Shown piece after piece: positions 7,013 through 63,842 of a stretch of 64,000 bases of DNA; within the stretch, counting starts at the first letter, position 1, and each line of letters begins with the position of its first letter. Source of the stretch: a virus; IMG/VR virus record IMGVR_UViG_3300042429_001107. One strand, 5' to 3'. Below the pieces are notes generated by a model. That model saw only the letters and a list, made by a program, of their open reading frames with translations, did no database searches and had not been told where the DNA came from. A program made the position numbers and the translations under genes.

Positions 7013-7612
7013 ATGAGAAACATCAAAGAATATAGAGATTTCTGTATTAATGAATCTGAAGAATTATTCTTTAGCAGACACTTAGGAAATGATGCTAAGA
7101 CATATGGTGATAGGGCTAAAAATCATTATAACCTACCTGAAGATGCTAGTATATTACAAAAAACTCAAAGGTTCTTTGGGTACATCGAAGACAAGCTAAA
7201 CAATATTGCACAAGCAGGACAAGATATAACAAGACAAAATAGAGCTGTTAGAGGCGGGGGTTTAAATACTGGATATGAAATGTTATTCGGTCTTCCGGCT
7301 ATTGTACCAGGAGTACTTAAAAGAGTATTCGGACCTACTAAATATGAGATTTCTAAAAGAGTACCAGCTAAGGATGAAGATGTAGATGTTGAGTTCATGA
7401 GACACACAAATGAGGATTTTGCTAAAAATGAACTACCGAACATTAAAACTGAGCAACAATTAGAAGATAATATCACCGAGCTTTATCAAAAAGCTCAGGT
7501 TAATAAAGGACAGGTACCTGCTCTAGATGATATAGGAATGAATAGAGCTTACCTTTATTATACAAAACAAAAAAATCCTAATCAACCTATATTCCAACCA
7601 AATAACGCATAA
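7013..7612 (+). CDS. Hypothetical protein with capsid-targeting-like leader
   Basis: N-terminus MRNIKEYRDFCINES; GATATATA at 6985. Confidence 0.6.
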   Translation: MRNIKEYRDFCINESEELFFSRHLGNDAKTYGDRAKNHYNLPEDASILQKTQRFFGYIEDKLNNIAQAGQDITRQNRAVRGGGLNTGYEMLFGLPAIVPGVLKRVFGPTKYEISKRVPAKDEDVDVEFMRHTNEDFAKNELPNIKTEQQLEDNITELYQKAQVNKGQVPALDDIGMNRAYLYYTKQKNPNQPIFQPNNA

Positions 7613-7616
7613 AAAA

Positions 7617-8369
7617 ATGAAAAAATTCTCTTTAGTAATAGAAAAGAAAAGACAAGACTTAAAAGAAGCAGAACTTGTAACTGAAAGAAATCAGTATTTA
7701 GATTTCTCTAAGAAGTACAATAAAGAACATGGTGTTTCTGGACCTTTTGATAAAAAATTCAAAGGTGATGAAAAATCACAGGAAGAGTACATGCAAGGTC
7801 TTTCAATGGCTTGGGACGAGTACAAGAAAAAGAAAGGTATTAAACTTAAATCTAATAGCAAAGACTTTGCTTTCAAAAAGAAAATGAATGAGTCTAAATC
7901 TTCTGATATGGCTAAGCAGATGATCGGTGATGGCGGAGATCCTAACTATCATTTTGTTACTATGTGTGACGATTACATGTTTGAGAAAGAAGATGCTATG
8001 ATGAATTATAGTAAAGAGCCAATGTCTGCTCCTTTAAAGATCAAAACCACACCGGATTTTGGAATCTATACATTCGGTCCTTTTATGAATATAGAAGAAT
8101 CAAAAATGTTTGCTGAAAGCATCGAATTAGATGAGATCAACGGACCAAGAATGGTAACTATACAAGACAGAAAAAATGGTGAAGTATTCTCTAAATTCTT
8201 ATCATGTAAAATGCAACCAGTTTGGGACGAGCATATTGAAGAGCATGTAGGAAGCATGGAAGATGAAGAAGACGAAGAAGAGGAAGAAGATCCTAACATG
8301 GAATACACTTATGGTGATGAAGATGAAGGTACTGACGATGTAGTTTACGATGAGGATGAGGAGGAATAA
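7617..8369 (+). CDS. Acidic hypothetical protein, possible prohead core/internal protein
   Basis: MKKFSLVIE leader, several hxE sites and a very acidic C-terminus. Confidence 0.45.
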   Translation: MKKFSLVIEKKRQDLKEAELVTERNQYLDFSKKYNKEHGVSGPFDKKFKGDEKSQEEYMQGLSMAWDEYKKKKGIKLKSNSKDFAFKKKMNESKSSDMAKQMIGDGGDPNYHFVTMCDDYMFEKEDAMMNYSKEPMSAPLKIKTTPDFGIYTFGPFMNIEESKMFAESIELDEINGPRMVTIQDRKNGEVFSKFLSCKMQPVWDEHIEEHVGSMEDEEDEEEEEDPNMEYTYGDEDEGTDDVVYDEDEEE

Positions 8370-8371
8370 AA

Positions 8372-8818
8372 ATGATGAATCAATTACAAAGTCAAGCTCT
8401 ATATCCAGTACTGCAACACTATACTGGTGAAAAGATAACTTCAATATCTGTTCTTGATGATCATAATCTTATTTTTAATACTTTCATTGGTGATGATGGT
8501 TTTGTTAATCAGAACACAGATGGAGATTGGGAAATAATAATAGAAAACAAAATTGTCTATACAATAGAGAAGGATGTTTTTGAGGTTCTTGTAAAACCAA
8601 GTAGAAAAAGTTCATTAGAGAATTACGTTGGTATTCTTAATGATCTTTTTAATGATAAAAAAATAAGCAATAGATCAAGGATATTGGTTTTTAATATCCT
8701 CCTATTTCTAGAAGAATATATAATAAACTCAGACTTTCTTCCAAAGAAGAATTTAAGAGTTGGTCCTTTTAGTATTTTTAATTACAAGGGGAATAAATTT
8801 GTTTACTGTTTAAATTAA
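8372..8818 (+). CDS. Hypothetical protein
   Basis: 148 aa ORF tightly packed in the operon. Confidence 0.5.
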   Translation: MMNQLQSQALYPVLQHYTGEKITSISVLDDHNLIFNTFIGDDGFVNQNTDGDWEIIIENKIVYTIEKDVFEVLVKPSRKSSLENYVGILNDLFNDKKISNRSRILVFNILLFLEEYIINSDFLPKKNLRVGPFSIFNYKGNKFVYCLN

Positions 8819-8821
8819 AAA

Positions 8822-10864: not shown

Positions 10865-11701
10865 ATGAAGAAGATATTAAGCTTTAAAGATTTTTCACTA
10901 TACGAATATCAAAAATTTGACAACTCACTATACAATAAAATTAACGAAGCTACATTTACGGACGAGGTGGAGAAAAGAAAATATGATCCGGTAGCTTTCA
11001 AAAAAATGAGGGCTGCAGTTTTCTTTCTAAACGCACAATATCCTTTCTTTGGAGGTCTTTTGTCTAGATTAATCATTAGAGAAAATAGAGGTATAAAAAC
11101 AATGTGTACTGATGGAGTAAGTATTCACTACAGCCCAGGATTTGTACATGAACATACTGATGATGAAATAATGTGGGTAATAGCCCATGAGGTTTTACAT
11201 TGTGCTTTATTACATTTCCTAAGAATGCCAGGAAAGGATTCTAAAACAGTAAGTATATGGAATTATGCTACAGATTATGCTTTAAATCAGATGCTTACAC
11301 CAGTCGATGAATCAAATCCAGGTAATCCTAAGCCTAGCGAAAAGAGAGGAGACTCTATAGGTAAAATGCCAAAGGGAGCATTATATCCTGGATGTGGAAG
11401 AGTTTCTTACGATAAAGAATTTGTTGGATTATCTGCTGATAGCATTTATGGTATTTTAATTAAAAATGGATTTCAACCAGATCCGGAAGATTCGCAAGCT
11501 GTTAATCCTCCACCACCTCCACCACCACCAGCTCCTCCACAGATACCTGTAGTCGGAGATATTATATTCGACCCAGCTAGTGGTAACTACGGTGTGGTAA
11601 ATAGCGTAGATGAAGATAATGATTCAGTGGATTATGATCCTATACCAAAATCTAAGGTTCCTGAATATATTAGAAAAAAATACGAGCAAGACAATTTATA
11701 A
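10865..11701 (+). CDS. HExxH metallopeptidase-like protein (DUF2201 N-terminal-like), module 1
   Basis: PFFGGLL, TMCTDG, AHEVLH, WNYATDYALN; poly-Pro; leader MKKILSFKDF. Confidence 0.8.
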   Translation: MKKILSFKDFSLYEYQKFDNSLYNKINEATFTDEVEKRKYDPVAFKKMRAAVFFLNAQYPFFGGLLSRLIIRENRGIKTMCTDGVSIHYSPGFVHEHTDDEIMWVIAHEVLHCALLHFLRMPGKDSKTVSIWNYATDYALNQMLTPVDESNPGNPKPSEKRGDSIGKMPKGALYPGCGRVSYDKEFVGLSADSIYGILIKNGFQPDPEDSQAVNPPPPPPPPAPPQIPVVGDIIFDPASGNYGVVNSVDEDNDSVDYDPIPKSKVPEYIRKKYEQDNL

Positions 11702-11710
11702 AATCGTAAT

Positions 11711-12694
11711 ATGAAAACAACAATAACCGGAATAAGAATCCAAGAAATGGATCCACCTGCAGGAACGGGAGGAACAGGACCAACTCCGCCACCACCACCT
11801 ATTGGAGATCCTGAAAACGTTGATAAATGGAAAGAAGATGAGGATGAGAAAAAAAGGGATCAAGATGGAAAACCAGAAGAAGAAGATGATGAGGATACTT
11901 TCGAAAGAGGCTTAACTGGAGGTGGAGGAACTTCTAATGTTGGGGGAGTATTACCAACAGGATCTCTAGGAGATCTTGGTGGAGATTCTGGATTAAATGG
12001 TGAAACATTAGGAGAAGAATGGGAGACATCATTAAAAAGATCAGAAAATGCTGGAAACGTACCTGCTTCTGTTAAAAGAGCATTAGATAAATTAAAAAGA
12101 CCTGTTATTGATTGGAAATCTGAACTTGAGAAATATATTGATGATGCAGTATCAAAAACTAAATATAAATTACCTGCTAGAAGATTTATTGGAGGCGGTG
12201 ATGCTCAATACGGATATAAAAGATATAAAGAGGACTTTGAGAACTTAGTGATTGCTATAGACACATCAGGATCTATAACTAGACCTATGATTGAGCAATT
12301 TCTTTCAGAGACAATGAAAATTACAGAGGATTACGCTCCACAAAAAACAGTAATACTTTATTGTGATACCCAAGTTTATGCCCCAGATATTTTAGAACCA
12401 GGAGATACTCCAGATTTTAATAAGATTGCTGGAGGTGGGGGAACTAATTTTTGGCCTCCTTTTAAATGGGTGGAAAAAAACATACTTGACGTGGGTGAAA
12501 CCCCAACGGTATTTATATACTTCACTGATGGATTTGCAGAATTTCCTAAATCATCCGAATACGGAATAGATGGTTATGATGATAGATGTATTTGGGTATT
12601 CTTATCTTTTAATGGAGAGCCTTTTGGAAACGATCAACCTTTTGGTGAAAGAATAGATATCACACTGGCAAATAAAGAAGTGGAAACTATATAA
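11711..12694 (+). CDS. vWA-like domain protein (DUF2201 C-terminal-like), module 1
   Basis: IDWKSEL, MIDAS IDTSGS, GGGGTNF, YFTDG. Confidence 0.8.
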   Translation: MKTTITGIRIQEMDPPAGTGGTGPTPPPPPIGDPENVDKWKEDEDEKKRDQDGKPEEEDDEDTFERGLTGGGGTSNVGGVLPTGSLGDLGGDSGLNGETLGEEWETSLKRSENAGNVPASVKRALDKLKRPVIDWKSELEKYIDDAVSKTKYKLPARRFIGGGDAQYGYKRYKEDFENLVIAIDTSGSITRPMIEQFLSETMKITEDYAPQKTVILYCDTQVYAPDILEPGDTPDFNKIAGGGGTNFWPPFKWVEKNILDVGETPTVFIYFTDGFAEFPKSSEYGIDGYDDRCIWVFLSFNGEPFGNDQPFGERIDITLANKEVETI

Positions 12695-12732
12695 AAATAG
12701 ATATATAAGAAATAAAATAAGAAATATTAAGG

Positions 12733-14322
12733 ATGAAAAAAATCTATAACTTTAAAGAATTCGTAAATGAATCTTACAATGTAGACGAAGGGGTATTATC
12801 TAATATCGGTAGCAAGATTTCACAATGGGCTAAACAGCTTATGACCGCAGTAAGAAATGGCATTATTAGAATGATCTCATCTGGTCCTAAAAAGGGATTA
12901 CCTGCTTATGTGTTATTTAATTCAGATGAAGGATCTATCTCAGATCAAGTTGAAAAATTCTATCGCGGAACACCTTATTATGATATGAACAATATCAATA
13001 ATCCTTCCGTAGCAAACGAGGCAGTGATTCCTTTGGAATGGGATAGAGAGGATGATGTACCTAATTCACTTCCCGAAGAAATAGAATCAGATATTAGAAG
13101 AAGTCTTAAAGCTTGTTTATCCATTGCAGATCAAATGGATGCCACAACTGATATGGACGAAAAAGCAAGATTACAAAGGGAATTAAGAAAAGTTAAACCA
13201 TATTTTATTTATGGAGCACCTGGTATTGGTAAAACACAAATCATAGCTAAAATATGCGATGAGCTTGGGTTAAACCTATTGAATTGCGATGGATTAAGTG
13301 CAGAACCAGTAGACTTTGCTGGTGTACCTAAAGTGGTAGATATTGAAGCTCCATCAGCAGAAAATCCATTAGGTAGGGGGGTTACAAGATCTAACGTAAG
13401 TGCGGATATTTTACCATATGATAACGGAAAAGGTGGAAAAGGGGGTATCTTATTTATTGATGAATTCAACCGTATGCCTGTTGAAGTACAAAAGATATTC
13501 TTATTATTAGCTCAGCAAAGAAGACTTGGTGTTAATTATGACATGCCTAATAGATGGTATATCGTAGCAGCAGGAAATAGAAAAGTTGATGACCCTAAGG
13601 GTGGTATTGTTGAAATGGGATCTGCATTACAGGATAGATTTGAGATTGTCAATCTTATTACTAATCCAGCATCAATGAGAAAATATGTAGAGACTACTCC
13701 TGGATTATCTGATATATTCCTACCAGAACTTCTTGATTTCTTAGATTTTGATGCTAGTTGGTTCCACATGAATGATCCAACTGCTAAGAAATTAAAATAC
13801 CCTACTCCTAGAGCTTGGGAAGATGCTTCTAGAGCAGTTAGAAGGGTTCTTCAAGAGTATGAACAAAAAGGAATATCAGAAGTGCCTCATAGCGTATTAG
13901 CAAGAGAATTTCAGAAGAACGTAGGTAGAGATGCTGCTGTAATGTTCTTAGATTTCTATAAGATAGCTCAGCAGATCCCAGTTAAAGAATTATCGCTTCC
14001 TTTTACTGATCCTGATAGAGCTCCTATTCCTAGTGAATACCAAGGAAAAACTAAAAAATCAGGTACTACTAATAGAACTGATTATGAGCACGCTTTATTC
14101 ACTGCTGTAATTAGAAAAAGCACGGAATTACCAAAATTAACAAGCACTGAGTCTTGTAACTTTTCAAAATGGTTAAGAAGAGTTAATGCACCAGAGATGG
14201 GAGCAATGGCAATCACATCATTCTTCCAAAAACATCCTCATTTATTAGAAGATTATGCAACTATGGAATGTTTAGGACCATTAGCTGATCAATGGGGAGC
14301 AGAAATTGGAGTTCAATTTTAA
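12733..14322 (+). CDS. MoxR-type AAA+ ATPase, module 1
   Basis: GAPGIGKT, LFIDEFNR, VAAGNR, ALQDRF, PTPRAW. Confidence 0.85.
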   Translation: MKKIYNFKEFVNESYNVDEGVLSNIGSKISQWAKQLMTAVRNGIIRMISSGPKKGLPAYVLFNSDEGSISDQVEKFYRGTPYYDMNNINNPSVANEAVIPLEWDREDDVPNSLPEEIESDIRRSLKACLSIADQMDATTDMDEKARLQRELRKVKPYFIYGAPGIGKTQIIAKICDELGLNLLNCDGLSAEPVDFAGVPKVVDIEAPSAENPLGRGVTRSNVSADILPYDNGKGGKGGILFIDEFNRMPVEVQKIFLLLAQQRRLGVNYDMPNRWYIVAAGNRKVDDPKGGIVEMGSALQDRFEIVNLITNPASMRKYVETTPGLSDIFLPELLDFLDFDASWFHMNDPTAKKLKYPTPRAWEDASRAVRRVLQEYEQKGISEVPHSVLAREFQKNVGRDAAVMFLDFYKIAQQIPVKELSLPFTDPDRAPIPSEYQGKTKKSGTTNRTDYEHALFTAVIRKSTELPKLTSTESCNFSKWLRRVNAPEMGAMAITSFFQKHPHLLEDYATMECLGPLADQWGAEIGVQF

Positions 14323-14614: not shown

Positions 14615-15148
14615 ATGAAACACATTAAATTATTTGAAAATTTCTTAAATGAAGATGGATACGGAAGAGACTTCTTTGTAAAAAAGAAAGACGGTAAACT
14701 TTCTCAATATTTTTTTAAGATTGAGGGAGAAGAGGAGGATCTAGGATTTGTAATAAATCTTGGTAAACTATCTAGAAATATCACCATAGAATCTGCAGAG
14801 AATAGTTATGCTGTTCTTTCCGTAGAGCCTATCAGAGAATCTGTGATGGATGATTTTTTAGTGAAAGATTCGGATTTTAAATCAAGAGAAGATGATCAAT
14901 TCACATTGACTAAATCTGAATATATGAGATTCTATAAGATTGTTGGTGAATGTATAAAAGATTACTTACAATCTAATCCTAAGGTTTCTATTATTTATGA
15001 TGAGGTACCTTTAAATCTTGATATGGATTTTGAAGAGTATTCAGATAAAGTTAAATCTCTTATGGATGAATGGAGCTACGGTAAATGGAGCTCACAAGAG
15101 GGAGCAACAAAGAAAACATTAATTTATTCTAGAAGAGACCATGATTAA
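14615..15148 (+). CDS. Hypothetical protein with capsid-targeting-like leader
   Basis: MKHIKLFENFLNE; GATATATA at 14603. Confidence 0.6.
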   Translation: MKHIKLFENFLNEDGYGRDFFVKKKDGKLSQYFFKIEGEEEDLGFVINLGKLSRNITIESAENSYAVLSVEPIRESVMDDFLVKDSDFKSREDDQFTLTKSEYMRFYKIVGECIKDYLQSNPKVSIIYDEVPLNLDMDFEEYSDKVKSLMDEWSYGKWSSQEGATKKTLIYSRRDHD

Positions 15149-15458
15149 TAATATTCTTTCATATGATGAATTTATATTAGAATCTAGGATACCTATAGCT
15201 TGGGCTAAGCCTTCAGTAACAACTACTAAGGTACTTTCATTCATAGGAGAGAAAGAAAAAGTAACCAAGAAAGAACTATTAGAATTCTTAGATAGTATAC
15301 CAGAAGATGCTTCAGGTAAGAAACCCAGTATGTCTTGGGTTAGAAATCAGAAGAAATATATCAAGTATAAAATACAAGAAGAAGATGCTAACCACTTTGA
15401 ATTGACCGCTTTAGGCAAGAGAGTTTTAAAATCTTTCAGGATTAATGAAACAAAATGA
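15141..15458 (+). CDS. Hypothetical protein, possible winged-helix, with leader
   Basis: MINNILSYDEFILES; C-terminal FELTALGKRVL resembles a wHTH wing. Confidence 0.45.
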   Translation: MINNILSYDEFILESRIPIAWAKPSVTTTKVLSFIGEKEKVTKKELLEFLDSIPEDASGKKPSMSWVRNQKKYIKYKIQEEDANHFELTALGKRVLKSFRINETK

Positions 15459-15672: not shown

Positions 15673-15677
15673 TTAAA

Positions 15678-16973: not shown

Positions 16974-17555
16974 ATGAATCATATACGATCATTTAGAAGT
17001 CTTTTTGAAGGAGTAAGTGCAGTAACAACTAATTGGTATATTGTAGATAACGAAGCTTCTTTTGATAAGATAAAAGGTAATGGATATATGCTTTTTAGCC
17101 AGGTAGGCATAATGACTATCGTTTATGTTAAACCTAAAGTAGAGGAAGAAGCTAGATTGGATTTTTATTTTGATAAAGCAAAATCACCAGATAAGAAAAG
17201 CATTTGTGTTTGTAAGATAATAGCTAATGACGGTAAAGTTAGGAGCTCTAAAAATTTTGATGATGTAACTACAGATAATGTTTGGGACATAACAGCTACG
17301 TTTTTTGATTATTGTGATTTAGAGAAGTCTGAAAAATCAATTAGAGATAAATTCATGATGGGATATTCTAAGACAATAAAGGATATCTTTAAAGGTGATA
17401 CAGAAAGAATACCCGGATCATTTAAAACATATTTGAATTATATGAAAGAATGGGCAAAGAAATCTATAGAGGGTGTTTCTTTAGATAAGAATGAAGATAA
17501 TTACGATTTCCGAGAGATGATTAAAGAATTTATTGCTTTCTTTAAAAAATCATAA
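16974..17555 (+). CDS. Hypothetical protein with leader
   Basis: MNHIRSFRSLFE. Confidence 0.55.
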   Translation: MNHIRSFRSLFEGVSAVTTNWYIVDNEASFDKIKGNGYMLFSQVGIMTIVYVKPKVEEEARLDFYFDKAKSPDKKSICVCKIIANDGKVRSSKNFDDVTTDNVWDITATFFDYCDLEKSEKSIRDKFMMGYSKTIKDIFKGDTERIPGSFKTYLNYMKEWAKKSIEGVSLDKNEDNYDFREMIKEFIAFFKKS

Positions 17556-17855
17556 TTTTTCTTTCTGTCTCAATTGGATAAGATAATTTTCCCAGATTGA
17601 TCCTCCTTCTTTTATACCAGGTTTAGCGCTCTTGTGTAACTTAGCTCTTTGTGACATTATATACGATGCTATAATAGCATCTTTTAATTCTATTTCTTTT
17701 TTATCCAACATTTCTTGTAATCTTCTTATTGATTTTAGAGCTTCGTCCCTATTTGCAAATCTTAATCCTTTAGGATAGCTTTGTCCTGAGTCGAAAGGTT
17801 TAATATCATTTAGATAAATCTGTTCGAATAATTTGAAGGTTAGAATTTTTTTCAC
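17550..17855 (-). CDS. Hypothetical protein with leader
   Basis: MKKILTFKLFE (GTG start); AATATATA on the minus strand at 17860-17867. Confidence 0.55.
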   Translation of the reverse strand: MKKILTFKLFEQIYLNDIKPFDSGQSYPKGLRFANRDEALKSIRRLQEMLDKKEIELKDAIIASYIMSQRAKLHKSAKPGIKEGGSIWENYLIQLRQKEKL

Positions 17856-20794: not shown

Positions 20795-20819
20795 TTTCCA
20801 ATAACATAGTAATTATTGA

Positions 20820-23252
<2,433 letters not shown>

Positions 23253-25895: not shown

Positions 25896-26543
25896 ATGAA
25901 TAGACCTAAGAAGCTTAGCAATTTTAAAGAATTCGTAAAAGAATACGGAGATATAGATGGAAAAGAAGATACCAAAAAAACCCCATGTATAATTTTAGCA
26001 GGACCTCCGGGATGTGGTAAGGGAACACAAGCTAGAATTATAGCCAAAGGTATGAGATGGAAACACATTTCAACTGGGGATATATTAAGGGATTCTGATA
26101 ATAAAGAGATCAAGAAGTTAATGAAAACTGGTAATCTTCTTCCTGATGAGATTGTAGGTAAAGAGCTTATAGATTATCTTAAAAAATTAACTAAACATAG
26201 CGATCCTAAGGGATATATTTTTGACGGATATCCTAGAAATCTTCAACAGAAGGCTATATTTGACGAGATTTGTAGAATTAATAATATCTCATTAGAATAT
26301 GTTTTCTTTTTAAATGTCGCAGAGAAGATATTAAGGGAAAGAATAAAAGAAAGAAGTAAATCTTCGGGAAGATCTGATGATAAAAACGAGGAAGCATTCC
26401 AAATTAGAATGGATGAATATAATGAACAGACGTTACCTATGATAGAATCTATGAGAAAAGGAGGAGGATTTTTGGAAATATCAGGGGAAAATAAATTGGA
26501 TGATATTACTAAGCTGATATTTAATAAAATTAATGAAATTTAA
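25896..26543 (+). CDS. adk: Adenylate kinase (short LID) with N-terminal leader extension
   Basis: GPPGCGKGTQ, HISTGDILR, FDGYPRN, RSKSSGRSDD. Confidence 0.9.
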   Translation: MNRPKKLSNFKEFVKEYGDIDGKEDTKKTPCIILAGPPGCGKGTQARIIAKGMRWKHISTGDILRDSDNKEIKKLMKTGNLLPDEIVGKELIDYLKKLTKHSDPKGYIFDGYPRNLQQKAIFDEICRINNISLEYVFFLNVAEKILRERIKERSKSSGRSDDKNEEAFQIRMDEYNEQTLPMIESMRKGGGFLEISGENKLDDITKLIFNKINEI

Positions 26544-27870: not shown

Positions 27871-28356
27871 ATGAGAATTTTAAAATTTTCCGAATTCCTT
27901 AATGAGCAATCAGTTTATAATACAGGAGTCCCTTTATACAGAGGCACAAGTTTTGAGCCAGAAAGAACTATTAAAAGAAATCAATTAATTTCTGAATTAA
28001 GAAGTCTTTTAACTCAAGTAATGAATGGTACTCTTTCCGAAATATCTTTAGTAGCAGAAATACCTACACAAGGTAAAAATGCTCCACAATATTTGAAAGA
28101 TATTTATTCTGAAATGGGATACAATCCAGGTAAAGATATGGAAGATGAGTACGATGAAGAAAACGACACTTATCTTGGTAACAGAGACAGAACTGGAGAT
28201 GAACCATCTACAAACATATTTGTAGATTCTGAATTTTTAGTTAAAGATGTAGATGAAGCTAGAAATGTTATTATAGCAATTCCTTATTCATTAAAAAAGA
28301 AAAACATCTTAGTTGAACTTACTCCAGAAATGATTGATGAAGCATTCATTAAATAA
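27871..28356 (+). CDS. Hypothetical protein with leader
   Basis: MRILKFSEFLNE; GATATATA at 27847. Confidence 0.6.
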   Translation: MRILKFSEFLNEQSVYNTGVPLYRGTSFEPERTIKRNQLISELRSLLTQVMNGTLSEISLVAEIPTQGKNAPQYLKDIYSEMGYNPGKDMEDEYDEENDTYLGNRDRTGDEPSTNIFVDSEFLVKDVDEARNVIIAIPYSLKKKNILVELTPEMIDEAFIK

Positions 28357-30596: not shown

Positions 30597-31349
30597 ATGA
30601 TTTTAAGATTAAGCGATTTTGTTAATGAGCAGGATTCGAATATTCCTGATGGAAGCGAGGGAACTCAAGCTCCCGTTAAGAGCTATGCAGGTAAACTAAA
30701 AATAAACTGGGATATGCCAGACCTTGCTGAGGAAATATCTCATTATGACGATAAAGCTAAATTGGAATTCTACCAGCATAATATTACTATTGGTAATAAA
30801 GATATAGGTAAAGTTGCTGCTAGATCCACCAAGTTTTTTAAATATATTAATGAGCCATTTAAAAAAGGACACATGGAAACAATTCCTATTGTTTCTGAGG
30901 ATGGATTTGATGTTAATAGTATTCAGAATTTAATGGCTTATGAGTTTGATAACATCATTGCTGGAGCATATGGTAGATCTTACGGAGATGTTCTAATAAA
31001 AATATCAGATGATCTTAAAAGAAAAGGCACTTTATCATTGCCTGCTCCTATTGTGATTAAATTTATAAATTTTGGAGAGACAAGAACATCTTCAGAATAC
31101 AGCTATTATCTTTTTTCTGGTAATAGGATAGCTAACTTAGCATTACAATATAATATTCCACTAAGAGCTTTAGTATTAGATTTAGTTCCTTCAAGAAGAG
31201 ACGTTAGAGAATTTGCACAAAAATCAGGTGCTACTACAGATCCGGTTAAATTCAAAAAGCTTCTTAGAAGAGAAACTGGTAAAGAAACTCTTGACGATCT
31301 TAATGCTAGAGAAAGATTTAAAATTATACAATCTCTTAAAGATTTCTAA
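30597..31349 (+). CDS. Hypothetical protein with leader, possible ParB/Srx-like domain
   Basis: MILRLSDFVNE; APIVIK...YYLFSGNR; GATATATA at 30584. Confidence 0.45.
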   Translation: MILRLSDFVNEQDSNIPDGSEGTQAPVKSYAGKLKINWDMPDLAEEISHYDDKAKLEFYQHNITIGNKDIGKVAARSTKFFKYINEPFKKGHMETIPIVSEDGFDVNSIQNLMAYEFDNIIAGAYGRSYGDVLIKISDDLKRKGTLSLPAPIVIKFINFGETRTSSEYSYYLFSGNRIANLALQYNIPLRALVLDLVPSRRDVREFAQKSGATTDPVKFKKLLRRETGKETLDDLNARERFKIIQSLKDF

Positions 31350-41316: not shown

Positions 41317-42264
41317 ATGTTAATTAAAGACGGGGATTATTCAGTAATATCTGATAATAAGAATAAAGATAATACACCTGAGACAGGGAATACAACTAAT
41401 ACAGGGAAACCAGAAGGCGGTGATCCTAATTTTGAAGATACTCCTAAAAAAATGGAAGACATACCTACAGTTGGTAGTGAATCACCTGGGGTAAAAACAT
41501 TTAGGGATTTTGATACAACTGGTTCTTCTACACAAAAAGCAAAAGAGGTAAAAGCAGATAAGCCAAGTAAGATATTTAAAGGAGATTTAAAGACACCAAA
41601 TTGGGCTGATATATCTAATCAGGCTTTAAGTAGATCTAAGCTATCTGACAAAGCTAAAAGACTGGTAAGGGCTTTAAAAACTAGTGAACCTCTAGTTAAT
41701 TGGAAAAAAGAATTAAAGAAATTCTTTGATAATACATTCAAATCTAGCGAATGGGTTTTACCTAATAAAAGATTCCTTGCTGGCGGTGATATGATATACG
41801 GTCGTAAAGAAACTGGAGAAGACACTTTAAAAACAATTGTTGCTGCTGTAGATACTTCAGGTTCGATTTCGAAAGAACAGGTTAAAGCATTTGTTAATGA
41901 GATAATGTATCTATGTAAAACATTTGATGCTGACAAGACTATAATTATATACTGTAGTGATGATATTGATAATGTTGATATAGTTAAAAAAGGGGGTCAG
42001 CCAGATCTCACTAAAATAGCTTCTACTGGGGGTAATGATAAAGGATTTATTCCGCCATTCCAATGGGTCGAGAAGAATAAAATAAAGCCATCAATATTTA
42101 TTTACCTAACAGATACAGGAGGAGAAATGCCAGATCCTTATAAATATGGAATAAGTAAATATAGAAAGAAAGTATTATGGTTTATATGCTCTCCAGAAAT
42201 GTACAATCCTCCTTCATTTGGAAAAATACTTTTTGCACCAGTTGGTTCTATAAGACCTAAATAA
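41317..42264 (+). CDS. vWA-like domain protein (DUF2201 C-terminal-like), module 2
   Basis: VNWKKEL, PNKRF, VDTSGS, YLTDTGG. Confidence 0.8.
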   Translation: MLIKDGDYSVISDNKNKDNTPETGNTTNTGKPEGGDPNFEDTPKKMEDIPTVGSESPGVKTFRDFDTTGSSTQKAKEVKADKPSKIFKGDLKTPNWADISNQALSRSKLSDKAKRLVRALKTSEPLVNWKKELKKFFDNTFKSSEWVLPNKRFLAGGDMIYGRKETGEDTLKTIVAAVDTSGSISKEQVKAFVNEIMYLCKTFDADKTIIIYCSDDIDNVDIVKKGGQPDLTKIASTGGNDKGFIPPFQWVEKNKIKPSIFIYLTDTGGEMPDPYKYGISKYRKKVLWFICSPEMYNPPSFGKILFAPVGSIRPK

Positions 42265-42279: not shown

Positions 42280-43149
42280 ATGAAAAGAATTAAATCTTTT
42301 AAGTTATTCGAATCATATTCTATAGGAATATTTGGAGTTAATGAAGTTGATACTGATGACGAATATATTAATGCTTATGCTTCGGCAAGATCAGGAATGA
42401 TCAAATCTAATTTTTATAAGGACTTTAAAAATTGGTTAGTTTATAAAGCTTATGAGAGAATATTAATGGATAATGAAGGAGAATCATATAATGATCCCAC
42501 GTCAATAATAAAATCCGAGGATTCTAAAATACAATCTCTCGTAAAATACCCTATGAATTATTCTGACGACGGATTTGATTACGAAAAATCTATTAAGGAA
42601 ATGGGGGTTACAGATAACATTAATGATGTAATAACTAGATTAGCTAGAGAATTAAAAATATGTGAACCTGCTAAAAATCCAAATCTACCTCAAGTAAATA
42701 AAGCGGTTTCGGTTATTATCGATGGAGACATTAATGAAGTATTAGATAACATATTTTGGCCAGGTAATATGCCTAATATTAAAGAATTAAAATATTTAGA
42801 TCTTTTTGGAGATGAAAGAAGAGAAAATTTTGGGATCAATAATTCACTAAGAGAATCATTAGAGAGAACATGTAATAAATATGCTTCTATGGAGAGGGAT
42901 ATAAATTCATTGGGTAAAAAATTCATGAATCTTTTAAAAGAGATTGGTGAAAGCCAAATAGAATCTTTAAGAGTATTAGAATTTCCTCAGGTTGTTACTG
43001 AAGCTATAGTGGAATATTTTAGTAAAGCTGAAGATTCATTTAAAGTTGCTGATGAGGTAAGAAAAGGAAGTGAGCATATATACAATAAGATAAAATCCTT
43101 ATTACCTAATATTGATACTGCAGCAGATCTAGGAGATCTAGGATTCTAA
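42280..43149 (+). CDS. Hypothetical protein with leader
   Basis: MKRIKSFKLFES; ends TAADLGDLGF. Confidence 0.55.
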   Translation: MKRIKSFKLFESYSIGIFGVNEVDTDDEYINAYASARSGMIKSNFYKDFKNWLVYKAYERILMDNEGESYNDPTSIIKSEDSKIQSLVKYPMNYSDDGFDYEKSIKEMGVTDNINDVITRLARELKICEPAKNPNLPQVNKAVSVIIDGDINEVLDNIFWPGNMPNIKELKYLDLFGDERRENFGINNSLRESLERTCNKYASMERDINSLGKKFMNLLKEIGESQIESLRVLEFPQVVTEAIVEYFSKAEDSFKVADEVRKGSEHIYNKIKSLLPNIDTAADLGDLGF

Positions 43150-43622: not shown

Positions 43623-44543
43623 ATGAGAATAATGAATTTTTCACAATTTTTAAACGAGAACTCAGAAGGTGGATATTCTTCTTTTGAAGCTTTACCTAAA
43701 CCTCTCAAAGATTTTTTTATTGACGGGGTTGGAAAAAACATACTATCTAAAGTAGTCGGACTTAAAAACTTTTCAATAGAACTTCAAGGATCAGAGATAT
43801 ATTTCGTTATTAACGGTAATAAAATACTAGTTCCGTTTGTTAATTATGTTTATGATCAAGTTGTGCCTAATACTAAATCATTAACAAATGAACCAATCAT
43901 TTATAATTTTTATAATAGTTTAGGAATGGATTTAGATAATTCTAGCTACAGATTCTATAAACATGATATAAATGGTTTATCTAGATTATTCTATCCTATA
44001 TTTACCAAACTTAGAGATATTATAAAAGATGATAGACCACTTCTAAATCCTTTTAATGATATTGATCTAAAAAACAACCGTCTTATACAATTATTAGATA
44101 AATTAGGTGCTTATATTGATACTAGTGATCAAAGGAAAAAGAAAGGGATTTTAAGATTCTCATTAAAAGATTTTGGTTATGGACTTATCATACAACCTAA
44201 TGGTTATATGAGAATTGATTACGGTGATAAAACACCAATTCTTACAACTAAGATGGAAATAACAGCACCTGCTTATACTGAGGATGATCTCAATTTAAAA
44301 TTATCATATTTAGTTGTTTATCTTATGAAAGATATACTTAAAAAATATAATGTTCCAGTAAAAACTATAAACTTGCTGGCTAAATTCTACGGAGATAGTG
44401 ATCTTAACGAATATGATAACCTAATAAAAGAAATATCTTTAAACTATCCAGGAGCAACTTCTCTTCTTCCTGATCCTAACTCGGTACTAAATCCTAGCGT
44501 AAAGAAAGGATCTAGTATGCTAAGAAGATTTGGAGTTATCTAA
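43623..44543 (+). CDS. Hypothetical protein with leader and C-terminal KGxxMLRRFG motif
   Basis: MRIMNFSQFLNE ... KGSSMLRRFGVI. Confidence 0.6.
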   Translation: MRIMNFSQFLNENSEGGYSSFEALPKPLKDFFIDGVGKNILSKVVGLKNFSIELQGSEIYFVINGNKILVPFVNYVYDQVVPNTKSLTNEPIIYNFYNSLGMDLDNSSYRFYKHDINGLSRLFYPIFTKLRDIIKDDRPLLNPFNDIDLKNNRLIQLLDKLGAYIDTSDQRKKKGILRFSLKDFGYGLIIQPNGYMRIDYGDKTPILTTKMEITAPAYTEDDLNLKLSYLVVYLMKDILKKYNVPVKTINLLAKFYGDSDLNEYDNLIKEISLNYPGATSLLPDPNSVLNPSVKKGSSMLRRFGVI

Positions 44544-59374: not shown

Positions 59375-61432
59375 TTAGCTAGCTAAAAATGCGTCAAACG
59401 AAGTCAAATAGTTAAATCCTGATTCATTCTTTTTCCATCCCTCCTTAGGAGCATTTAACTTAACCGCTTTATCTGCTTGAAATTCGCCTCTTGCTTTTTT
59501 GTTTGGTCCTGAGATCACCGTGTATTTCCCATCATTGAATAATGTCACTGTGCCTGCTGCTTCTTTTGATTGGTAAGTGTATGTTGCTTTACCACTAGGA
59601 CTTTGTCCCCAAGTGCCTTTCAATTTAGAAACTGCGGGGAATTTCTTTGTGAATTCTCCTTGAGATTTTTTCAATTTGTCTAATAGTTTTTCTGAACCTC
59701 CCCCTGCTTTAACTAGAGTTGCTGTACCAGTTACTCCTATTTTCTTTATTGCTTCTTTATCTTTAGCAGTTATATCAACTTTTATAGGCGCGATTATAGG
59801 ACCAGATTGTTTTTTAATTCCCGGTGATGGTGATTTTAATTTAGGGTTACCTGCTATTTTTTTAGATATTTCAACGTTTCTTTTGCCTAGCGAAATCATC
59901 CATCCAGTAACAGGTTTAACTTTAGGCTTAATATATTGATCAATAAATCTCTGTGCACATGATGACATAGGCTTAACAGCACCGGAAAGAGCACTTGATA
60001 TTATACCTCCTACAAATGATTTTCCATAATTCTTTTTGAAATTATCTATTCCTTTAGTAATTTTACCTGGTATTTCCATAAGTCCATTGATAGCTTTACC
60101 AACTAGTCCTATACCGGCTACAACGGAATCGTAAATCCACCCAAAACATGATTTACCTAAATAAACTAAGAAGTTAATAAGTAATTCACCAAATCCCCAA
60201 GCTCCTCCTTGTGATTCGTTTATTGTTTCATCCCATTCTTCTTGGTATTCTTCGTGATCTAATACTGCTTCTTTTCCTTTGTCTAATGCTGCATCTGCTC
60301 CTTTAGCTATTAATTTACCACCACCTTTAACAAGTTCACCAGCTTTCTCCATAAATGGTGCTTTCTCACAAAGTGTTGAGAAGAATTCGCCCATCCATTC
60401 TGAACATCCTATTACTTTACCAACTCCTGTACCTGCTATAGTAGCACCAAAAGCCACTTTATTAAATTTAGTAGCCCAAGTAAGAATACTCGATTTAAGA
60501 GAAATACCTAGCATTCCTGCCCCTGGAACTGCATCTGCAAATCCAGTGACACAATCTTTAATACCTAATATTAGCCCAACTGACCCAAGTACTATTTTAG
60601 CTCCGCCTTTTATTATATTTTTAACTTTATCAGCAGCTCCTACCTCTTTCATCGATGCAGAGATATTTTGTACCGCCTCGTAAATAGTTATTGCTCCTGC
60701 TATTGTAGTAAGAACCCCAGCTGCTGCCGTACCCCAAGCAGGAACAAAAGCAACTATACTTGATACAATTTGTAACGCTATACCCATTGCAGTAAGCGGA
60801 TTTTCTTTAATAAATGTAACAACGGCAGAAACTATTTTTTTACTGAATTCCCATACTGCTTTAGCTCCTGATGATAGAGCATCCCATGCTTGTACAACTT
60901 TCTTACCAACATAAGCTGCTGCTGCTTTAACAGGTTCAACTACATATTTTTTAACTGCATTTCCCACAGCTTTAACCGATTTTTTAACAAAATTACCAAC
61001 TGAGCTAACTATATCCCAAAATCCTTCAAGAATTAATTCAGATTGATTCATTAAGCTTTCTAATGTTGATTCTTTAACTATGTGAAGTCTATTATTTTTA
61101 AAAAGAACCACGTGTCCTTCTTCTATATTTTGGCCGCTCAAGAAAAATATTTCACCTTTAGAGTTAAACCAATCCTGATTGTGCTCGTATAGTACTCCTA
61201 GCTCGTATGTATAATAAGCTTGTTCAAGAAGCAAATTGTTTTCTTCTTCTGAGCTATTCTCATTTAAAGAGACTCCGAAGAAGTTTTTAAATTCTGAAAA
61301 ATCCCATGCTGCCATACAGTTTTCCCTAAGAGATGACATTTGATTTATTTTTGCTTCCAATAATCCATCGGAGTCAAAATTATATGATTCATCCACTTTA
61401 GTAAAATCGTCAAATAGTGATAAGTATCTCAT
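59375..61432 (-). CDS. Leader-bearing protein with amphipathic and hydrophobic helices, possible ejected membrane protein
   Basis: MRYLSLFDDF; many hxE sites; hydrophobic hairpin AMGIALQIVSSIVAFVPAWGTAAAGVLTTIAGAITI. Confidence 0.55.
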   Translation of the reverse strand: MRYLSLFDDFTKVDESYNFDSDGLLEAKINQMSSLRENCMAAWDFSEFKNFFGVSLNENSSEEENNLLLEQAYYTYELGVLYEHNQDWFNSKGEIFFLSGQNIEEGHVVLFKNNRLHIVKESTLESLMNQSELILEGFWDIVSSVGNFVKKSVKAVGNAVKKYVVEPVKAAAAYVGKKVVQAWDALSSGAKAVWEFSKKIVSAVVTFIKENPLTAMGIALQIVSSIVAFVPAWGTAAAGVLTTIAGAITIYEAVQNISASMKEVGAADKVKNIIKGGAKIVLGSVGLILGIKDCVTGFADAVPGAGMLGISLKSSILTWATKFNKVAFGATIAGTGVGKVIGCSEWMGEFFSTLCEKAPFMEKAGELVKGGGKLIAKGADAALDKGKEAVLDHEEYQEEWDETINESQGGAWGFGELLINFLVYLGKSCFGWIYDSVVAGIGLVGKAINGLMEIPGKITKGIDNFKKNYGKSFVGGIISSALSGAVKPMSSCAQRFIDQYIKPKVKPVTGWMISLGKRNVEISKKIAGNPKLKSPSPGIKKQSGPIIAPIKVDITAKDKEAIKKIGVTGTATLVKAGGGSEKLLDKLKKSQGEFTKKFPAVSKLKGTWGQSPSGKATYTYQSKEAAGTVTLFNDGKYTVISGPNKKARGEFQADKAVKLNAPKEGWKKNESGFNYLTSFDAFLAS

Positions 61433-61442: not shown

Positions 61443-61742
61443 TTAGTTGTTATTATCGTCTGATATTAGGCCATTCTCTGTGTCGTGTGATAATTCAAAT
61501 GAGGATTTTAAGAAACCGTATACCTCTTCGACGTCATCTTTAGATGTTGCAATATGATCTAATGCCCATCCGTGACCATCTGTAAGTGTTGAATCCACCA
61601 TTGAATGATCCATTGCTAGAATCTCTTCGCACATTCTTTTAATATTAGATATGTTTGCAAAGAACATGTAATTTTCAGCCTCATCATGATTTTCTGAGAT
61701 TGATTTTTTGAATTGTGTAAATCTTTTAATAGAAGGTGTCAT
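61443..61742 (-). CDS. Hypothetical protein with leader
   Basis: MTPSIKRFTQF..ISE; NYMFF...WALDHIATSKDDVEEV. Confidence 0.55.
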   Translation of the reverse strand: MTPSIKRFTQFKKSISENHDEAENYMFFANISNIKRMCEEILAMDHSMVDSTLTDGHGWALDHIATSKDDVEEVYGFLKSSFELSHDTENGLISDDNNN

Positions 61743-62047: not shown

Positions 62048-62590
62048 ATGAAAAATCTTACAGTATACGAAACTTATTTAAATTCCGGTAGAGTTAACGA
62101 ACAAGCTCTTAAAAAAAATACTAAAACATTAATCAGAGACATTGCAGCACAAAACGGTGTTGATTCAGAAGAACTATTAATGATGGTTCAATCAGATCTT
62201 GAAGAAGATGGTGTTATGGAAAATAAAATTAACGAATGGATAGGTGGTGAATCTATTGCTACTATGGCTGATTTCTTTGTTATTTTACCTAGTGTTATTG
62301 CAGGATTAGTTACTCTTGCTTTAGGAGGTACAAGATTAGAAGGATGGGCACAAAATAAAAGATGGATTAAAGCTGAAGCAGAGCAAAGAGTTAAGGAAAT
62401 GATCAAAAAAGATGGAACTTTAATTGATAGACAAGCAGAATTAATCACTAAGGTTACTGAAGAACTTAAAAATGATCCAGCAGTTCAAGCTAAACTTAGT
62501 AAAGCTAAATGGGAAGGTGGATTAGATCACCCTTCTATCAAAAAAGATAGATCTACTTATAAGACTCACATCTTCGGAGGAGGTTATTAA
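62048..62590 (+). CDS. Leader-bearing single-TM protein
   Basis: MKNLTVYETYLN..VNE; TM FFVILPSVIAGLVTLALGG; tandem GATATATA at 62013 and 62021. Confidence 0.55.
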   Translation: MKNLTVYETYLNSGRVNEQALKKNTKTLIRDIAAQNGVDSEELLMMVQSDLEEDGVMENKINEWIGGESIATMADFFVILPSVIAGLVTLALGGTRLEGWAQNKRWIKAEAEQRVKEMIKKDGTLIDRQAELITKVTEELKNDPAVQAKLSKAKWEGGLDHPSIKKDRSTYKTHIFGGGY

Positions 62591-62607
62591 TATAAATTAA
62601 ACCCAAT

Positions 62608-62640
62608 AAAAAAGGCCTTTAATTATTTAAAGGCCTTTTT
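62608..62640. terminator. Bidirectional intrinsic terminator
   Basis: AAAAAAGGCCTTTAA-TTAT-TTAAAGGCCTTTTT between convergent genes. Confidence 0.85.
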
Positions 62641-62655
62641 AGTGATAAAATGGTT

Positions 62656-62991
62656 TTATTCTGATAATCTTTTCTCGTATTTTTCGGCTAATTTAGCGTA
62701 TCTAGTGAAGTCTCGGAGGTTTAAGTAAAGTAAAATACTTAAAGGCACATTTATTAACATTAGATAGTAAATAAACCATGTTTCTTGTACGCCAAAGTAA
62801 CAAAGTGCAGAGCAAATATAGGAGAATGCAGCAAAAAATATGTTTCTTCCCATGTTTTTGCTGAAGTATTCTTTCGATTGTTTGAATTCATTGATCATTT
62901 CTCTTTTTTTGAAGATATCTAATGAATCGAAATGCTCATCAAGAGATACTTCTGGCTTGATTGAGTTTATAATATTTGCTTCTTTTTTCAT
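62656..62991 (-). CDS. Two-TM membrane protein
   Basis: Two hydrophobic helices; AATCAT-class promoter upstream. Confidence 0.55.
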   Translation of the reverse strand: MKKEANIINSIKPEVSLDEHFDSLDIFKKREMINEFKQSKEYFSKNMGRNIFFAAFSYICSALCYFGVQETWFIYYLMLINVPLSILLYLNLRDFTRYAKLAEKYEKRLSE

Positions 62992-63065
62992 GACTTTATA
63001 TTTTGTTTATAAAGTAAATATAGATAATTCTAATTGTATAAAAAAATGATTCCTAGATTTTCACC

Positions 63066-63842
63066 TTAAGAGTTCCTATTATTATAATTTTTTTCGTAAT
63101 CTTTAAGAACATTTGGATTTGATTTAAGATAAGCTATTTCTTTATTTGTTTTTGTCTTCAATTCATTAGATAATGTTTTAAGCTTCGAAGAAAGAGATTG
63201 TGTAAATCCTGGAGTTTTTCTGTATGTTGAAAAGTAATCTATAAATCCTAATAACTTTGCTGGGTGATCCTTAGGATCTGATGATATACTTGGATCATTT
63301 ATTTTCCTAGTTAATATAAAAGTGCCATATCCTTCTCTACCACCATCTATCGGATTTGTGTTTCCTTCTATTCCAGTCCATGTTTTATTTGTTTTATCTA
63401 CCGATAGTACTATACCAGTATGACCTTTACCTGGATATGTGCCTTTTGATTTGTCCCTAGATAAATAACAAAATACCATCCCCGGTAAAATTAAATCTAA
63501 ATTTAGACCTGATTTATATTCTATTTTTTTTGCTCCTGTTTTCTCCCAATGTAATTTTACACTAGCAGAATTTGATATTTTATTTTTAATGTCTGAAGAG
63601 AATTGAGTTTTAGATAAAACGCCATGAATGAATCCTGCACACCAAGGATCTCCTGGCTTTGCGTTAACTCCTTTTAATAGCGATTCAACTTTAGTGCCTT
63701 TATTACTTCCTCTAGGAGCTTCTTCAGAATCAGCTGATTTAATAGCAGAATAAAAACTATTAACAATGGAATTTGTTACTTCTTTCTTTTCTGCCTTTTC
63801 GCTTTCAGTTATGTACTCAATAAATGATAAAATACTAATCAT
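63066..63842 (-). CDS. CHAP-domain peptidoglycan hydrolase with leader
   Basis: PWCAGFI, GHTGIV, IEGNT; MISILSFIEYITES; GATATATA on the minus strand at 63847-63854. Confidence 0.8.
   Translation of the reverse strand: MISILSFIEYITESEKAEKKEVTNSIVNSFYSAIKSADSEEAPRGSNKGTKVESLLKGVNAKPGDPWCAGFIHGVLSKTQFSSDIKNKISNSASVKLHWEKTGAKKIEYKSGLNLDLILPGMVFCYLSRDKSKGTYPGKGHTGIVLSVDKTNKTWTGIEGNTNPIDGGREGYGTFILTRKINDPSISSDPKDHPAKLLGFIDYFSTYRKTPGFTQSLSSKLKTLSNELKTKTNKEIAYLKSNPNVLKDYEKNYNNRNS

Follow-up and report, generated by a model that had tools for sequence, protein, structure and literature searches.

We found that a set of proteins of an uncultured lake phage (genome ~250-290 kb) shares a 12-residue N-terminal peptide that matches the load-then-clip signal of phage T4. 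It is carried by 23 proteins, belonging to 19 unrelated families, in the window (the whole stretch of 64,000 nucleotides that was analysed) and by at least 40 proteins genome-wide. Since this leader matches the T4 capsid-loading signal, the phage probably fills its capsid with protein cargo of unusual amount and variety. We consider it rather likely that the shared N-terminus is a T4-type capsid-targeting sequence and maturation propeptide, made late in infection and cleaved by an S77 protease, and that the cargo is probably ejected together with the DNA; capsid loading, leader cleavage and ejection or injection are steps that we infer from sequence. Megablast of the window against GenBank phages gave zero matches, and no published description of such a leader system was found in the literature. 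The clade, made up of freshwater and huge phages, is widespread and comprises at least 538 IMG/VR stretches. The phage belongs to a lineage of Bacteroidota type, and its capsid protein is nearest to those of Lak megaphages and huge phage LR756500.1.

A sequence-only reading of this DNA had quoted 20 such N-termini with coordinates, all of which were located there, and three further, weaker leaders were added (62048+, 51662- and 54752-). These genes, their upstream copies of the 8-mer GATATATA and three leaderless landmarks are the following:

7013..7612, + strand: leader protein of 199 aa, MRNIKEYRDFCINES, not assigned to a Pfam family; GATATATA at 6985-6992
10865..11701, + strand: leader protein, putative metallopeptidase (DUF2201_N), MKKILSFKDFSLYE, opening triad 1; AATATATA variant upstream
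11711..12694, + strand: leaderless VWA-like DUF2201 member of triad 1
12733..14322, + strand: leader protein, AAA_5/MoxR-like ATPase, MKKIYNFKEFVNES; GATATATA at 12700-12707
14615..15148, + strand: leader protein, 177 aa, MKHIKLFENFLNED; GATATATA at 14603-14610
15141..15458, + strand: leader protein, 105 aa, MINNILSYDEFILES, co-transcribed with 14615
16974..17555, + strand: leader-like protein, 193 aa, MNHIRSFRSLFEG, short variant
17550..17855, - strand: leader-like protein, 101 aa, GTG start, VKKILTFKLFEQ; AATATATA variant upstream
20818..20825, + strand: GATATATA late-type promoter preceding a leaderless collagen-repeat protein (20847-23252)
25896..26543, + strand: leader protein, adenylate kinase; GATATAAA variant upstream
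27871..28356, + strand: leader protein, 161 aa, MRILKFSEFLNEQ; GATATATA at 27847-27854
30597..31349, + strand: leader protein of 250 aa, MILRLSDFVNEQ and then a low-complexity linker; GATATATA at 30584-30591
33953..35446, + strand: leader protein of 497 aa, MDKKLFTFKQFINEQ and then a linker; GATATATA at 33941-33948
38883..40382, + strand: leader protein, AAA_5/MoxR-like ATPase, IKNFNDFVNES, first gene of triad 2, paralogue of 12733; GATATATA at 38855-38862
40379..41311, + strand: leader protein, DUF2201_N metallopeptidase, FSNYVRFINES ending at residue 29, paralogue of 10865
41317..42264, + strand: leaderless VWA-like DUF2201 member of triad 2
42280..43149, + strand: leader-like protein, 289 aa, MKRIKSFKLFES
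43623..44543, + strand: leader protein, 306 aa, MRIMNFSQFLNEN
51018..51662, - strand: protein of 214 aa with a weak leader, MSIKNYEGFKKIQE, distantly paralogous to 43623; GATATATA at 51686-51693
53931..54752, - strand: weak leader without Glu, MKKRKKKRIDSFKNWLL; GATATATA at 54758-54765
55816..57081, - strand: leader protein, 421 aa, HVFSFNEFVNEA, C-terminal region weakly OmpA-like; GATATATA at 57106-57113
57795..59327, - strand: leader protein of 510 aa, HVFSFDEFVFEA, with an OmpA peptidoglycan-binding domain; GATATATA at 59348-59355
59375..61432, - strand: leader-like protein, 685 aa, MRYLSLFDDFTKVDES, last in an operon behind GATATATA at 61920-61927
61443..61742, - strand: leader-like protein, 99 aa, PSIKRFTQFKKSISE
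62048..62590, + strand: protein of 180 aa with a weak leader, MKNLTVYETYLNSGRVNE; GATATATA twice, in overlapping copies, at 62013-62028
63066..63842, - strand: leader protein, 258 aa, MISILSFIEYITES, weak CHAP match; GATATATA at 63847-63854

The start of 53931..54752 is probably Met6 of the longest open reading frame, because GATATATA lies inside the first codons of the longer frame. That the proteins are unrelated was borne out by BLAST (E<1e-3) after removal of their first 30 residues, which left the 19 families. Four of these hold a pair of paralogues: the MoxR ATPases, the DUF2201_N peptidases, the OmpA-like proteins, and 43623 with 51018. In the adenylate kinase at 25896 the ADK domain does not begin until residue 34, which makes the leader an extra piece at the N-terminus. 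It speaks against capsid loading that adenylate kinase and MoxR/VWA modules would be unusual as capsid cargo; MoxR/VWA modules are not known to be virion proteins in N4-like phages. CHAP is a cell-wall amidase/peptidase domain, and one leader protein of the relative G001 contains a Tad3-family anti-Thoeris domain (E=5e-21). A ferritin-like protein, which the sequence-only reading had counted among the payload, is absent from the window, and the ferritin-domain protein of G001 has a weak leader only. Pfam searches with the uncharacterised cargo mostly gave no matches, and a single ESM Atlas look-up yielded nothing usable.

The leader consensus, M-K-x-I-x-x-F-x-[ED]-F-[VIL]-N-E-[SQ], is found at the extreme N-terminus of otherwise unrelated bodies, and in a MAFFT alignment of 42 G001 leader proteins the consensus MKxIxxFxxFxNE was the sole common feature. 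Simple patterns matched 21-25 of the 161 N-termini compared to 3-7 expected from internal positions or shuffles, and an ungapped 11-column matrix built from the leaders retrieved 19 of the 161 N-termini of the contig where less than one was expected. The motif is enriched at N-termini, and chance or composition as its source was ruled out by the internal-position and shuffle controls. Of 38 strict matches, 35 have the final Glu of the motif within residues 11-18, and the strict leaders (~19 per genome) carry V/I/L-x-E. The leader was sought and found absent in DNA polymerase B, both RNR subunits, both topoisomerase II subunits, DnaJ, UvdE and a helicase, in agreement with what had been claimed for replication, RNR, topoisomerase, dnaJ and uvsE genes, and equally in tail and baseplate proteins.

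In T4, the capsid targeting sequence (CTS) MKTYQEFIAE is present on IPI, IPII, IPIII and Alt and is removed by the prohead protease gp21 (Mullaney and Black 1996; PMC9026906, PMC8442874); mutagenesis showed that its residues 4 and 7 govern targeting and residues 8 and 10 processing (PMC9026906), the latter two being the hydrophobic P3 and the Glu P1 of the gp21 rule L/I-x-E. The four most informative columns of the leader (F, F, V/I/L and E) align without gaps to CTS residues 4, 7, 8 and 10, and the top two, both F/Y (3.2 and 4.0 log-odds units), fall on Y4 and F7. The matrix trained on the phage leaders places T4 gp61.1 (MKTFKEFIKE), IPIII and IPII at ranks 1-3 of 217 T4 ORF N-termini, and gives a score of 8.5 to the gp23 site FGSFLTE (residues 59-65); gp23 is reported to be cleaved by gp21 at this position, after a propeptide of 65 residues (PMC5694885). 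IPI, Alt and gp24 were not recovered by this matrix among the 217 T4 ORFs. The likeness to the T4 CTS covers an extreme N-terminal peptide of 10-17 residues, aromatics at both targeting positions and, in the strict leaders, hydrophobic P3 and Glu P1 at the processing positions, next to unrelated, fast-evolving bodies, predicted late expression, a gp23-type capsid protein and, judged by the syntenic relatives, an S77 protease. Unlike in T4, where only a handful of proteins is tagged, there are 23 in the window and at least 40 per genome; the predicted cargo includes large enzymes of up to 685 aa, whereas T4 cargo consists mostly of small basic proteins; and the protease, as read from the relatives' genes, is fused to a repeat scaffold that bears the leader motif itself. 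The idea of one portable T4-type tag survives all computational tests run, with the restriction that the h-x-E site is lacking or shifted in about one third of the relaxed leader set (e.g. MKHIKLFEQF... and the G001 adenylate kinase, which has lost the Glu).

The contig begins inside a Gp23-family capsid gene (92.5% identity to G001), and because it is cut there, the S77 protease that was sought in its 149 kb was not found. In all four syntenic relatives tested (G001-G004) a Peptidase_S77 gene lies directly upstream of the capsid gene, with the S77 domain situated within an ORF of 680-710 aa. The proteases of these relatives score 36.5-42.8 bits against Pfam PF03420 (cut-off 27) and match a PHROG head maturation protease at 2.3e-37; D72-H73-P74 and S128-S129-R130 are invariant in 34 homologues, and a phmmer comparison with the T4 gp21 structure 5JBL covers both motifs at a weak E=0.098. 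The C-terminal half of the protein carries ~14 tandem 14-residue repeats, I-S-Y-S-E-Y-L-A-E-N-L-D-K-N (core YSEYLAE), which have the same aromatic-x-x-aromatic-h-x-E core as the leaders. Only 19 of 65,231 internal G001 7-mers score 9 or more, and 10 of these 19 are located in the protease-scaffold repeats. In an AlphaFold2 model of the fusion, whose confidence is low (mean pLDDT 54), the repeats look like one long helix, which is no more than a hint. The capsid protein contains a conserved HSLNE|SAGAYN (L-N-E|S near residue 43), with the same h-N-E-S ending as the leaders. Leaders are also borne by genes flanking the protease and capsid genes in G001 and G002; an 863-aa leader protein adjoining the protease was considered as portal and ruled out by a portal family search. 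Across ~60 divergent IMG/VR loci the scaffold repeats always end in Glu, and leader-bearing genes adjoin the scaffold gene in most of those loci that have several neighbouring genes. Co-variation of leader and repeat over these loci was uninformative as a test, because both are invariant. Of the cultured relatives, Tenacibaculum phage PTm1 has a protease-scaffold fusion with different repeats and no leader in the 25 kb around its capsid gene, and Flavobacterium phage MaF61 has none in the 42 kb around its capsid gene; with no leader in these regions, both were rejected as proteomic proxies. Lak megaphage does not use this leader and has another recurrent N-terminal motif.

The 8-mer GATATATA occurs 19 times in the window compared to 6.7 +/- 2.4 times in shuffles, of which 0 out of 100 reach 19, and over the whole contig 21 of 30 copies are oriented with a gene and precede its start codon by 12-35 nt. 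Its association with leader genes has an odds ratio of 4 (p=0.0013) in the own contig and 9.2 (p=4e-11) in G001. The association that the sequence-only reading had pointed to was thereby upheld, and its cargo regulon was not: genes for tail, baseplate and collagen-like fibre proteins that have no leader are preceded by GATATATA just as often, the 8-mer also precedes the protease-scaffold gene, and the copy at 20818..20825, before the leaderless collagen-repeat gene, means that the promoter is not leader-specific. Judged by this placement, GATATATA is a putative general late promoter. Upstream of it there is no conservation and no -35 element. A gp55-like sigma ORF was found in G002 only (E=3e-6), the corresponding region being missing from G000 and G001.

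Taken as a mechanism, leader genes would be transcribed late from the T4-like, -10-only promoter GATATATA, after which the two leader aromatics would dock the new protein onto a prohead core made up mostly of the C-terminal half of the protease-scaffold fusion with its tandem repeats. Once the gp23-type capsid shell had closed round this core, the S77 (gp21-type) domain would cut after Glu in h-x-E, reducing the scaffold to short peptides, trimming the capsid protein at L-N-E|S and freeing the cargo from its leader inside the head, from where it would probably be ejected with the DNA. The predicted cargo comprises two MoxR ATPase/metallopeptidase/VWA sets, adenylate kinase, OmpA-like and CHAP-like proteins and many uncharacterised proteins, with Tad3 in a close relative. 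Leaders without a clear h-x-E may be targeted but left unclipped, being loaded like the T4 CTS Glu10Asp mutant. We put forward more tentatively, as plausible though short of probable, that the 14-residue repeats are a multivalent docking rack with which proteins carrying a single core co-assemble, to be freed by the adjoining protease, and that the clade in this way injects at least 40 proteins before gene expression. Such a rack would make cargo loading self-contained and evolvable, and would allow Tad3 and whole MoxR/VWA/peptidase machines to be injected. If the tag works as it does in T4, the match between leader and scaffold repeat would also provide a concrete, testable answer to an open question in T4, namely the binding partner of the CTS.

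Several other explanations of the leader have to be weighed. It could be an amphipathic helix that sends late proteins to the membrane, to a phage compartment or to a DnaJ/host DnaK chaperone, its likeness to the CTS being convergent. The i, i+3, i+6/7 spacing of hydrophobic residues is indeed generic, the phage encodes a complete DnaJ, several cargo proteins are cytoplasmic-type enzymes and the cleavage Glu is missing in many leaders; we nevertheless hold this unlikely, as it accounts neither for the ~14 core repeats in the protease-scaffold, nor for the h-N-E-S shared with the capsid propeptide junction, the matrix picking T4 IPII, IPIII and the gp23 site, or the leaders on genes flanking protease and capsid. 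The evidence for targeting and cleavage would serve equally well if the leader proteins were accessories of prohead-core assembly or scaffolding, degraded or expelled at maturation like T4 gp22, gp67 and gp68 and no payload at all, and T4 core proteins are mostly destroyed rather than retained (PMC5694885). However, unlike scaffold proteins, the leader proteins have as bodies large folded enzymes and domains that bind the cell wall, internal core matches are few (9 in the G001 proteome outside the scaffold), and Tad3, CHAP and OmpA domains would make sense only once delivered, which makes such a role quite improbable in our view.

A cassette acting at the DNA or RNA level (promoter, start and first codons), which would aid translation or gene shuffling with the peptide being incidental, appears highly improbable. 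T4-type phages do shuffle genes via conserved regulatory cassettes, leader and promoter co-occur, and the promoter-ATG distance of 12-35 nt is very short. Yet synonymous codons at the conserved leader positions follow genome usage (TTT 72% vs 72%; GAA 68% vs 74%), so selection acts on the peptide, and nucleotide-level conservation was largely refuted by this comparison. Leader substitutions are moreover conservative in amino acid (F/Y/L, I/V/L) while the residues in between vary freely, tail late genes have the promoter without the leader, and some leader genes, several in number, are not directly preceded by a promoter.

Among known systems, the jumbo phages phiKZ, 201phi2-1 and SPN3US also bring a large mass of ejected protein, with ~50 head proteins of which many are cut after Glu by a gp21-related protease (gp175/gp245 process head and ejection proteins; PMC5694885, PMC7411985, PMC10052503), and their propeptides are inferred to direct proteins into the prohead. 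Those propeptides are mostly long (many 79-160 or more residues), have no common sequence and end in S/A/G-x-E, whereas the tag described here is short and uniform, ends in a T4-like h-x-E and belongs to a different lineage. If the tag acts as in T4, this clade uses one short, portable address label to pack a much wider range of proteins than any T4-type phage characterised so far. Dozens of uncharacterised proteins could then be read as first-wave effectors that arrive with the DNA (anti-defence, cell wall, takeover), and injected proteins could be predicted by sequence in jumbo and huge phages known from hundreds of uncultured genomes. As a pair, tag and scaffold might also become a protein-packaging tool for Bacteroidota phages. 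Encapsulin cargo-loading peptides and microcompartment encapsulation peptides are likewise short, often amphipathic helices that load unrelated enzymes into a shell, and encapsulin shells have the HK97 fold, as do phage capsids. Unlike what is proposed for the leader, they attach directly to the shell protein, stay on the cargo without protease cleavage and do not serve delivery to another cell, and we regard the likeness as an analogy only. The leader proteins themselves diverge faster (median 66% vs 74% identity, p=0.02), and strain-specific proteins are commoner among them; both traits fit a cargo role.

The contig from which the window derives (148,938 bp, linear, ~32% G+C, 54% complete according to CheckV) contributes its bases 83,916-147,915 to it, carries myovirus-type baseplate genes upstream of it, and encodes an RNR large subunit whose nearest relatives are found in Tenacibaculum and Cellulophaga phages. 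Using its sheath-like protein as query, 46 related IMG/VR loci were found, including two near-complete relatives:

G001, 248 kb, sheath identity 87%, syntenic gene for gene with the window's contig (G000)
G002, 245 kb, sheath identity 60%

All 20 leader-bearing N-termini listed by the sequence-only reading were confirmed at their positions, and three weaker ones were added (62048+, 51662- and 54752-). After removal of the first 30 residues, these 23 proteins represent 19 families unrelated by BLAST. Simple patterns match 21-25 of the 161 ORF N-termini where 3-7 are expected, and an 11-column matrix matches 19 where internal segments and shuffled N-termini predict fewer than one. The leader is a real and strongly non-random feature. 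Nearly all strict matches have their terminal Glu at residues 11-18, and MKxIxxFxxFxNE is the sole common feature in an alignment of 42 G001 leader proteins. Since codon choice at the conserved leader residues follows genome-wide usage, the constraint acts at the peptide level rather than the DNA level. As claimed, the leader is absent from DNA polymerase B, both RNR subunits, both topoisomerase II subunits, DnaJ and UvdE; neither did we find it on a helicase or on any tail or baseplate protein. About one third of the leaders miss a clear h-x-E (hydrophobic-any-Glu) putative cleavage site, and these may be loaded uncut or signify something else.

In T4, suppressor mutagenesis of the capsid targeting sequence (CTS) assigned targeting to residues 4 and 7 and processing to residues 8 and 10, with Asp at position 10 blocking cleavage while targeting is kept (review PMC9026906). 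These four residues align without gaps with the four most conserved leader columns. When the matrix, trained only on the present phage, was run over the first 135 kb of T4 (217 ORFs), gp61.1 (MKTFKEFIKE) ranked first, IPIII second and IPII third; IPI, Alt and gp24 were not recovered. Within the T4 capsid protein gp23, from which gp21 cuts a propeptide of 65 residues (PMC5694885), the same matrix selects FGSFLTE at residues 59-65, the reported cleavage position. The top-ranking gp61.1 is an unannotated 54-aa protein starting MKTFKEFIKED (NC_000866 18966-19130, minus strand) and, as the best of the 217 N-termini, above IPII and IPIII, may be an unrecognised CTS-bearing protein.

The contig starts within a Gp23-family capsid gene. 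In the four syntenic relatives (G001-G004), the capsid gene is immediately preceded by one that matches Peptidase_S77, the family of gp21-type prohead proteases, above the Pfam cut-off and is assigned by PHROG to the head maturation proteases. The protease makes up the N-terminal third of a protein of 680-710 residues, the remainder of which consists of ~14 tandem repeats of 14 residues (I-S-Y-S-E-Y-L-A-E-N-L-D-K-N), modelled by AlphaFold2 as a long helix at low confidence. In spacing and chemistry the repeat core Y-S-E-Y-L-A-E matches both the leader core F-x-E-F-V-N-E and the T4 CTS Y-Q-E-F-I-A-E, and just 19 of 65,231 internal 7-mers of the G001 proteome reach a leader-core score of at least 9, 10 of them in this protease-scaffold protein. 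The fusion is widespread, relatives being encoded in at least 538 IMG/VR stretches; in ~60 such loci at 40-100% identity the repeats are always Glu-terminated, and in most of those with several neighbouring genes the scaffold gene is accompanied by leader-bearing ones. Near residue 43, a conserved HSLNE|SAGAYN in the capsid protein of G001-G004 shares the h-N-E-S ending of the leaders, and the neighbours of the protease and capsid genes bear either the leader or a second form, G-Y-N-P-[IV]-[FY]-E-S. This second N-terminal peptide of head-module proteins ([YL]-x-G-Y-N-P-[IVL]-[FY]-E-[SQ]-[LM]) also ends in h-aromatic-E-S, and its carriers, one of them an 841-863-aa protein encoded immediately 5' of the protease, are located at:

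G000 3013-3546
G001 15653-18244 and 24290-24820
G002 159315-161840 and 167780-170143

The head machinery, the motif-bearing scaffold fusion, the T4 determinants and cross-validation, the capsid junction and the head-module location make a capsid-targeting propeptide the most likely identity of the leader. A greatly expanded T4-type tag system coupled to a repeat scaffold is the best explanation, one that seems to us reasonably probable, if less than firm. Among known systems, the T4 CTS with gp21 comes closest. The giant phages phiKZ, 201phi2-1 and SPN3US likewise have many processed head proteins, but their propeptides are mostly long and without common sequence, unlike the shared leader described here. 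No leader was seen in the regions around the capsid genes of the nearest cultured phages, Tenacibaculum phage PTm1 and Flavobacterium phage MaF61; it is present in the huge phage LR756500.1. The 21 papers found to contain the phrase "capsid targeting sequence" all deal with T4, P1, P22, SPN3US or vaccine vectors, and describe neither a uniform CTS on dozens of proteins nor a scaffold of CTS-like repeats. Near the capsid gene of Prevotella phage Lak-A1, four proteins share an N-terminal K-x-L-[ILY]-E-[SN]-[LM]-F-D-D-x-D-D, possibly the equivalent, in Lak phages, of a head-targeting tag. With TAG read as a sense codon, their ORFs lie within MK250016.1 25000-74000 at:

9241, plus strand
34060, minus strand
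42971, minus strand
46102, plus strand

The putative cargo includes two paralogous three-gene sets, each encoding a MoxR-type AAA ATPase, a DUF2201_N metallopeptidase and a VWA-like DUF2201 protein, in unlike gene order:

window 10865-14322, first MoxR triad
window 38883-42264, second MoxR triad

In each triad only the VWA protein lacks the leader, and what is usually one DUF2201 protein is split into a leader-bearing peptidase gene and a leaderless VWA-like gene. The window also encodes a leader-bearing adenylate kinase whose ADK domain begins at residue 34, so that its leader is an add-on. Further leader proteins of the window are two of OmpA-like type, one with a weak CHAP match and ~12 with no family match. 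ATP-dependent machines and a nucleotide kinase would be unusual contents for a capsid. Beyond the end of the window's contig, G001 encodes many further leader proteins, among them a 261-aa protein (leader MKRIKDFKGFINEQ, 151569-152354) that contains a Tad3 domain, known from type I Thoeris inhibitors (E=4.7e-21), and has no counterpart at the syntenic site in G000; a ferritin-domain protein in G001 has only a weak leader. Leader proteins diverge faster between G000 and G001 (median identity 66% vs 74% for other proteins, p=0.02), and an orthologue is missing for 12 of 40, compared to 19 of 112 others. This pattern fits host-interaction cargo, comparable to the variable T4 internal proteins.

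The 8-mer GATATATA, proposed as the promoter of a cargo regulon, has 19 copies in the window (6.7 +/- 2.4 in dinucleotide shuffles), and 21 of its 30 contig copies lie 12-35 nt 5' of a start codon in gene orientation, followed by an A-rich stretch and without conservation upstream. Most leader genes or their operons do follow it (about 20 of 23, variants and operons counted). Its cargo specificity did not hold, as about as many leaderless as leader genes carry it (16 vs 16 in G000). Leaderless genes that follow it are the protease-scaffold gene, tail and baseplate genes, an HNH-like gene and a collagen-repeat gene. Because leaderless genes share the motif and G002 encodes a gp55-like sigma factor (E=3e-6), we read it as a general late promoter of T4 type. 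Two minus-strand copies lie inside the 5' end of the longest ORF (54758-54765 in ORF 53931-54767; 61920-61927 in ORF 61744-61947), and translation probably begins at internal Met codons, 54752 and 61902, matching the G001 orthologues; the former start was moved to Met6 because the motif falls within the opening codons of the longer ORF and Met6 is where the G001 orthologue begins. The collagen-triple-helix repeat protein (801 aa, window 20847-23252, plus strand; Pfam Collagen, 1.8e-73) has no counterpart in G001, and its gene lies behind GATATATA in a 41% G+C stretch between the RNR small and large subunit genes.

The family B DNA polymerase ORF (window 17910-19316, plus strand) is just 468 aa long and, besides the exonuclease domain, spans the initial third of the polymerase domain (profile positions 16-147 of 453), so that the enzyme may be split or interrupted. 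In G002, a 1119-aa ORF (145612-148452) contains two tandem full-length Portal_T4 matches (E=7.5e-67 and 2.7e-64), and might represent either a portal gene that was duplicated or fused or an artefact of assembly.
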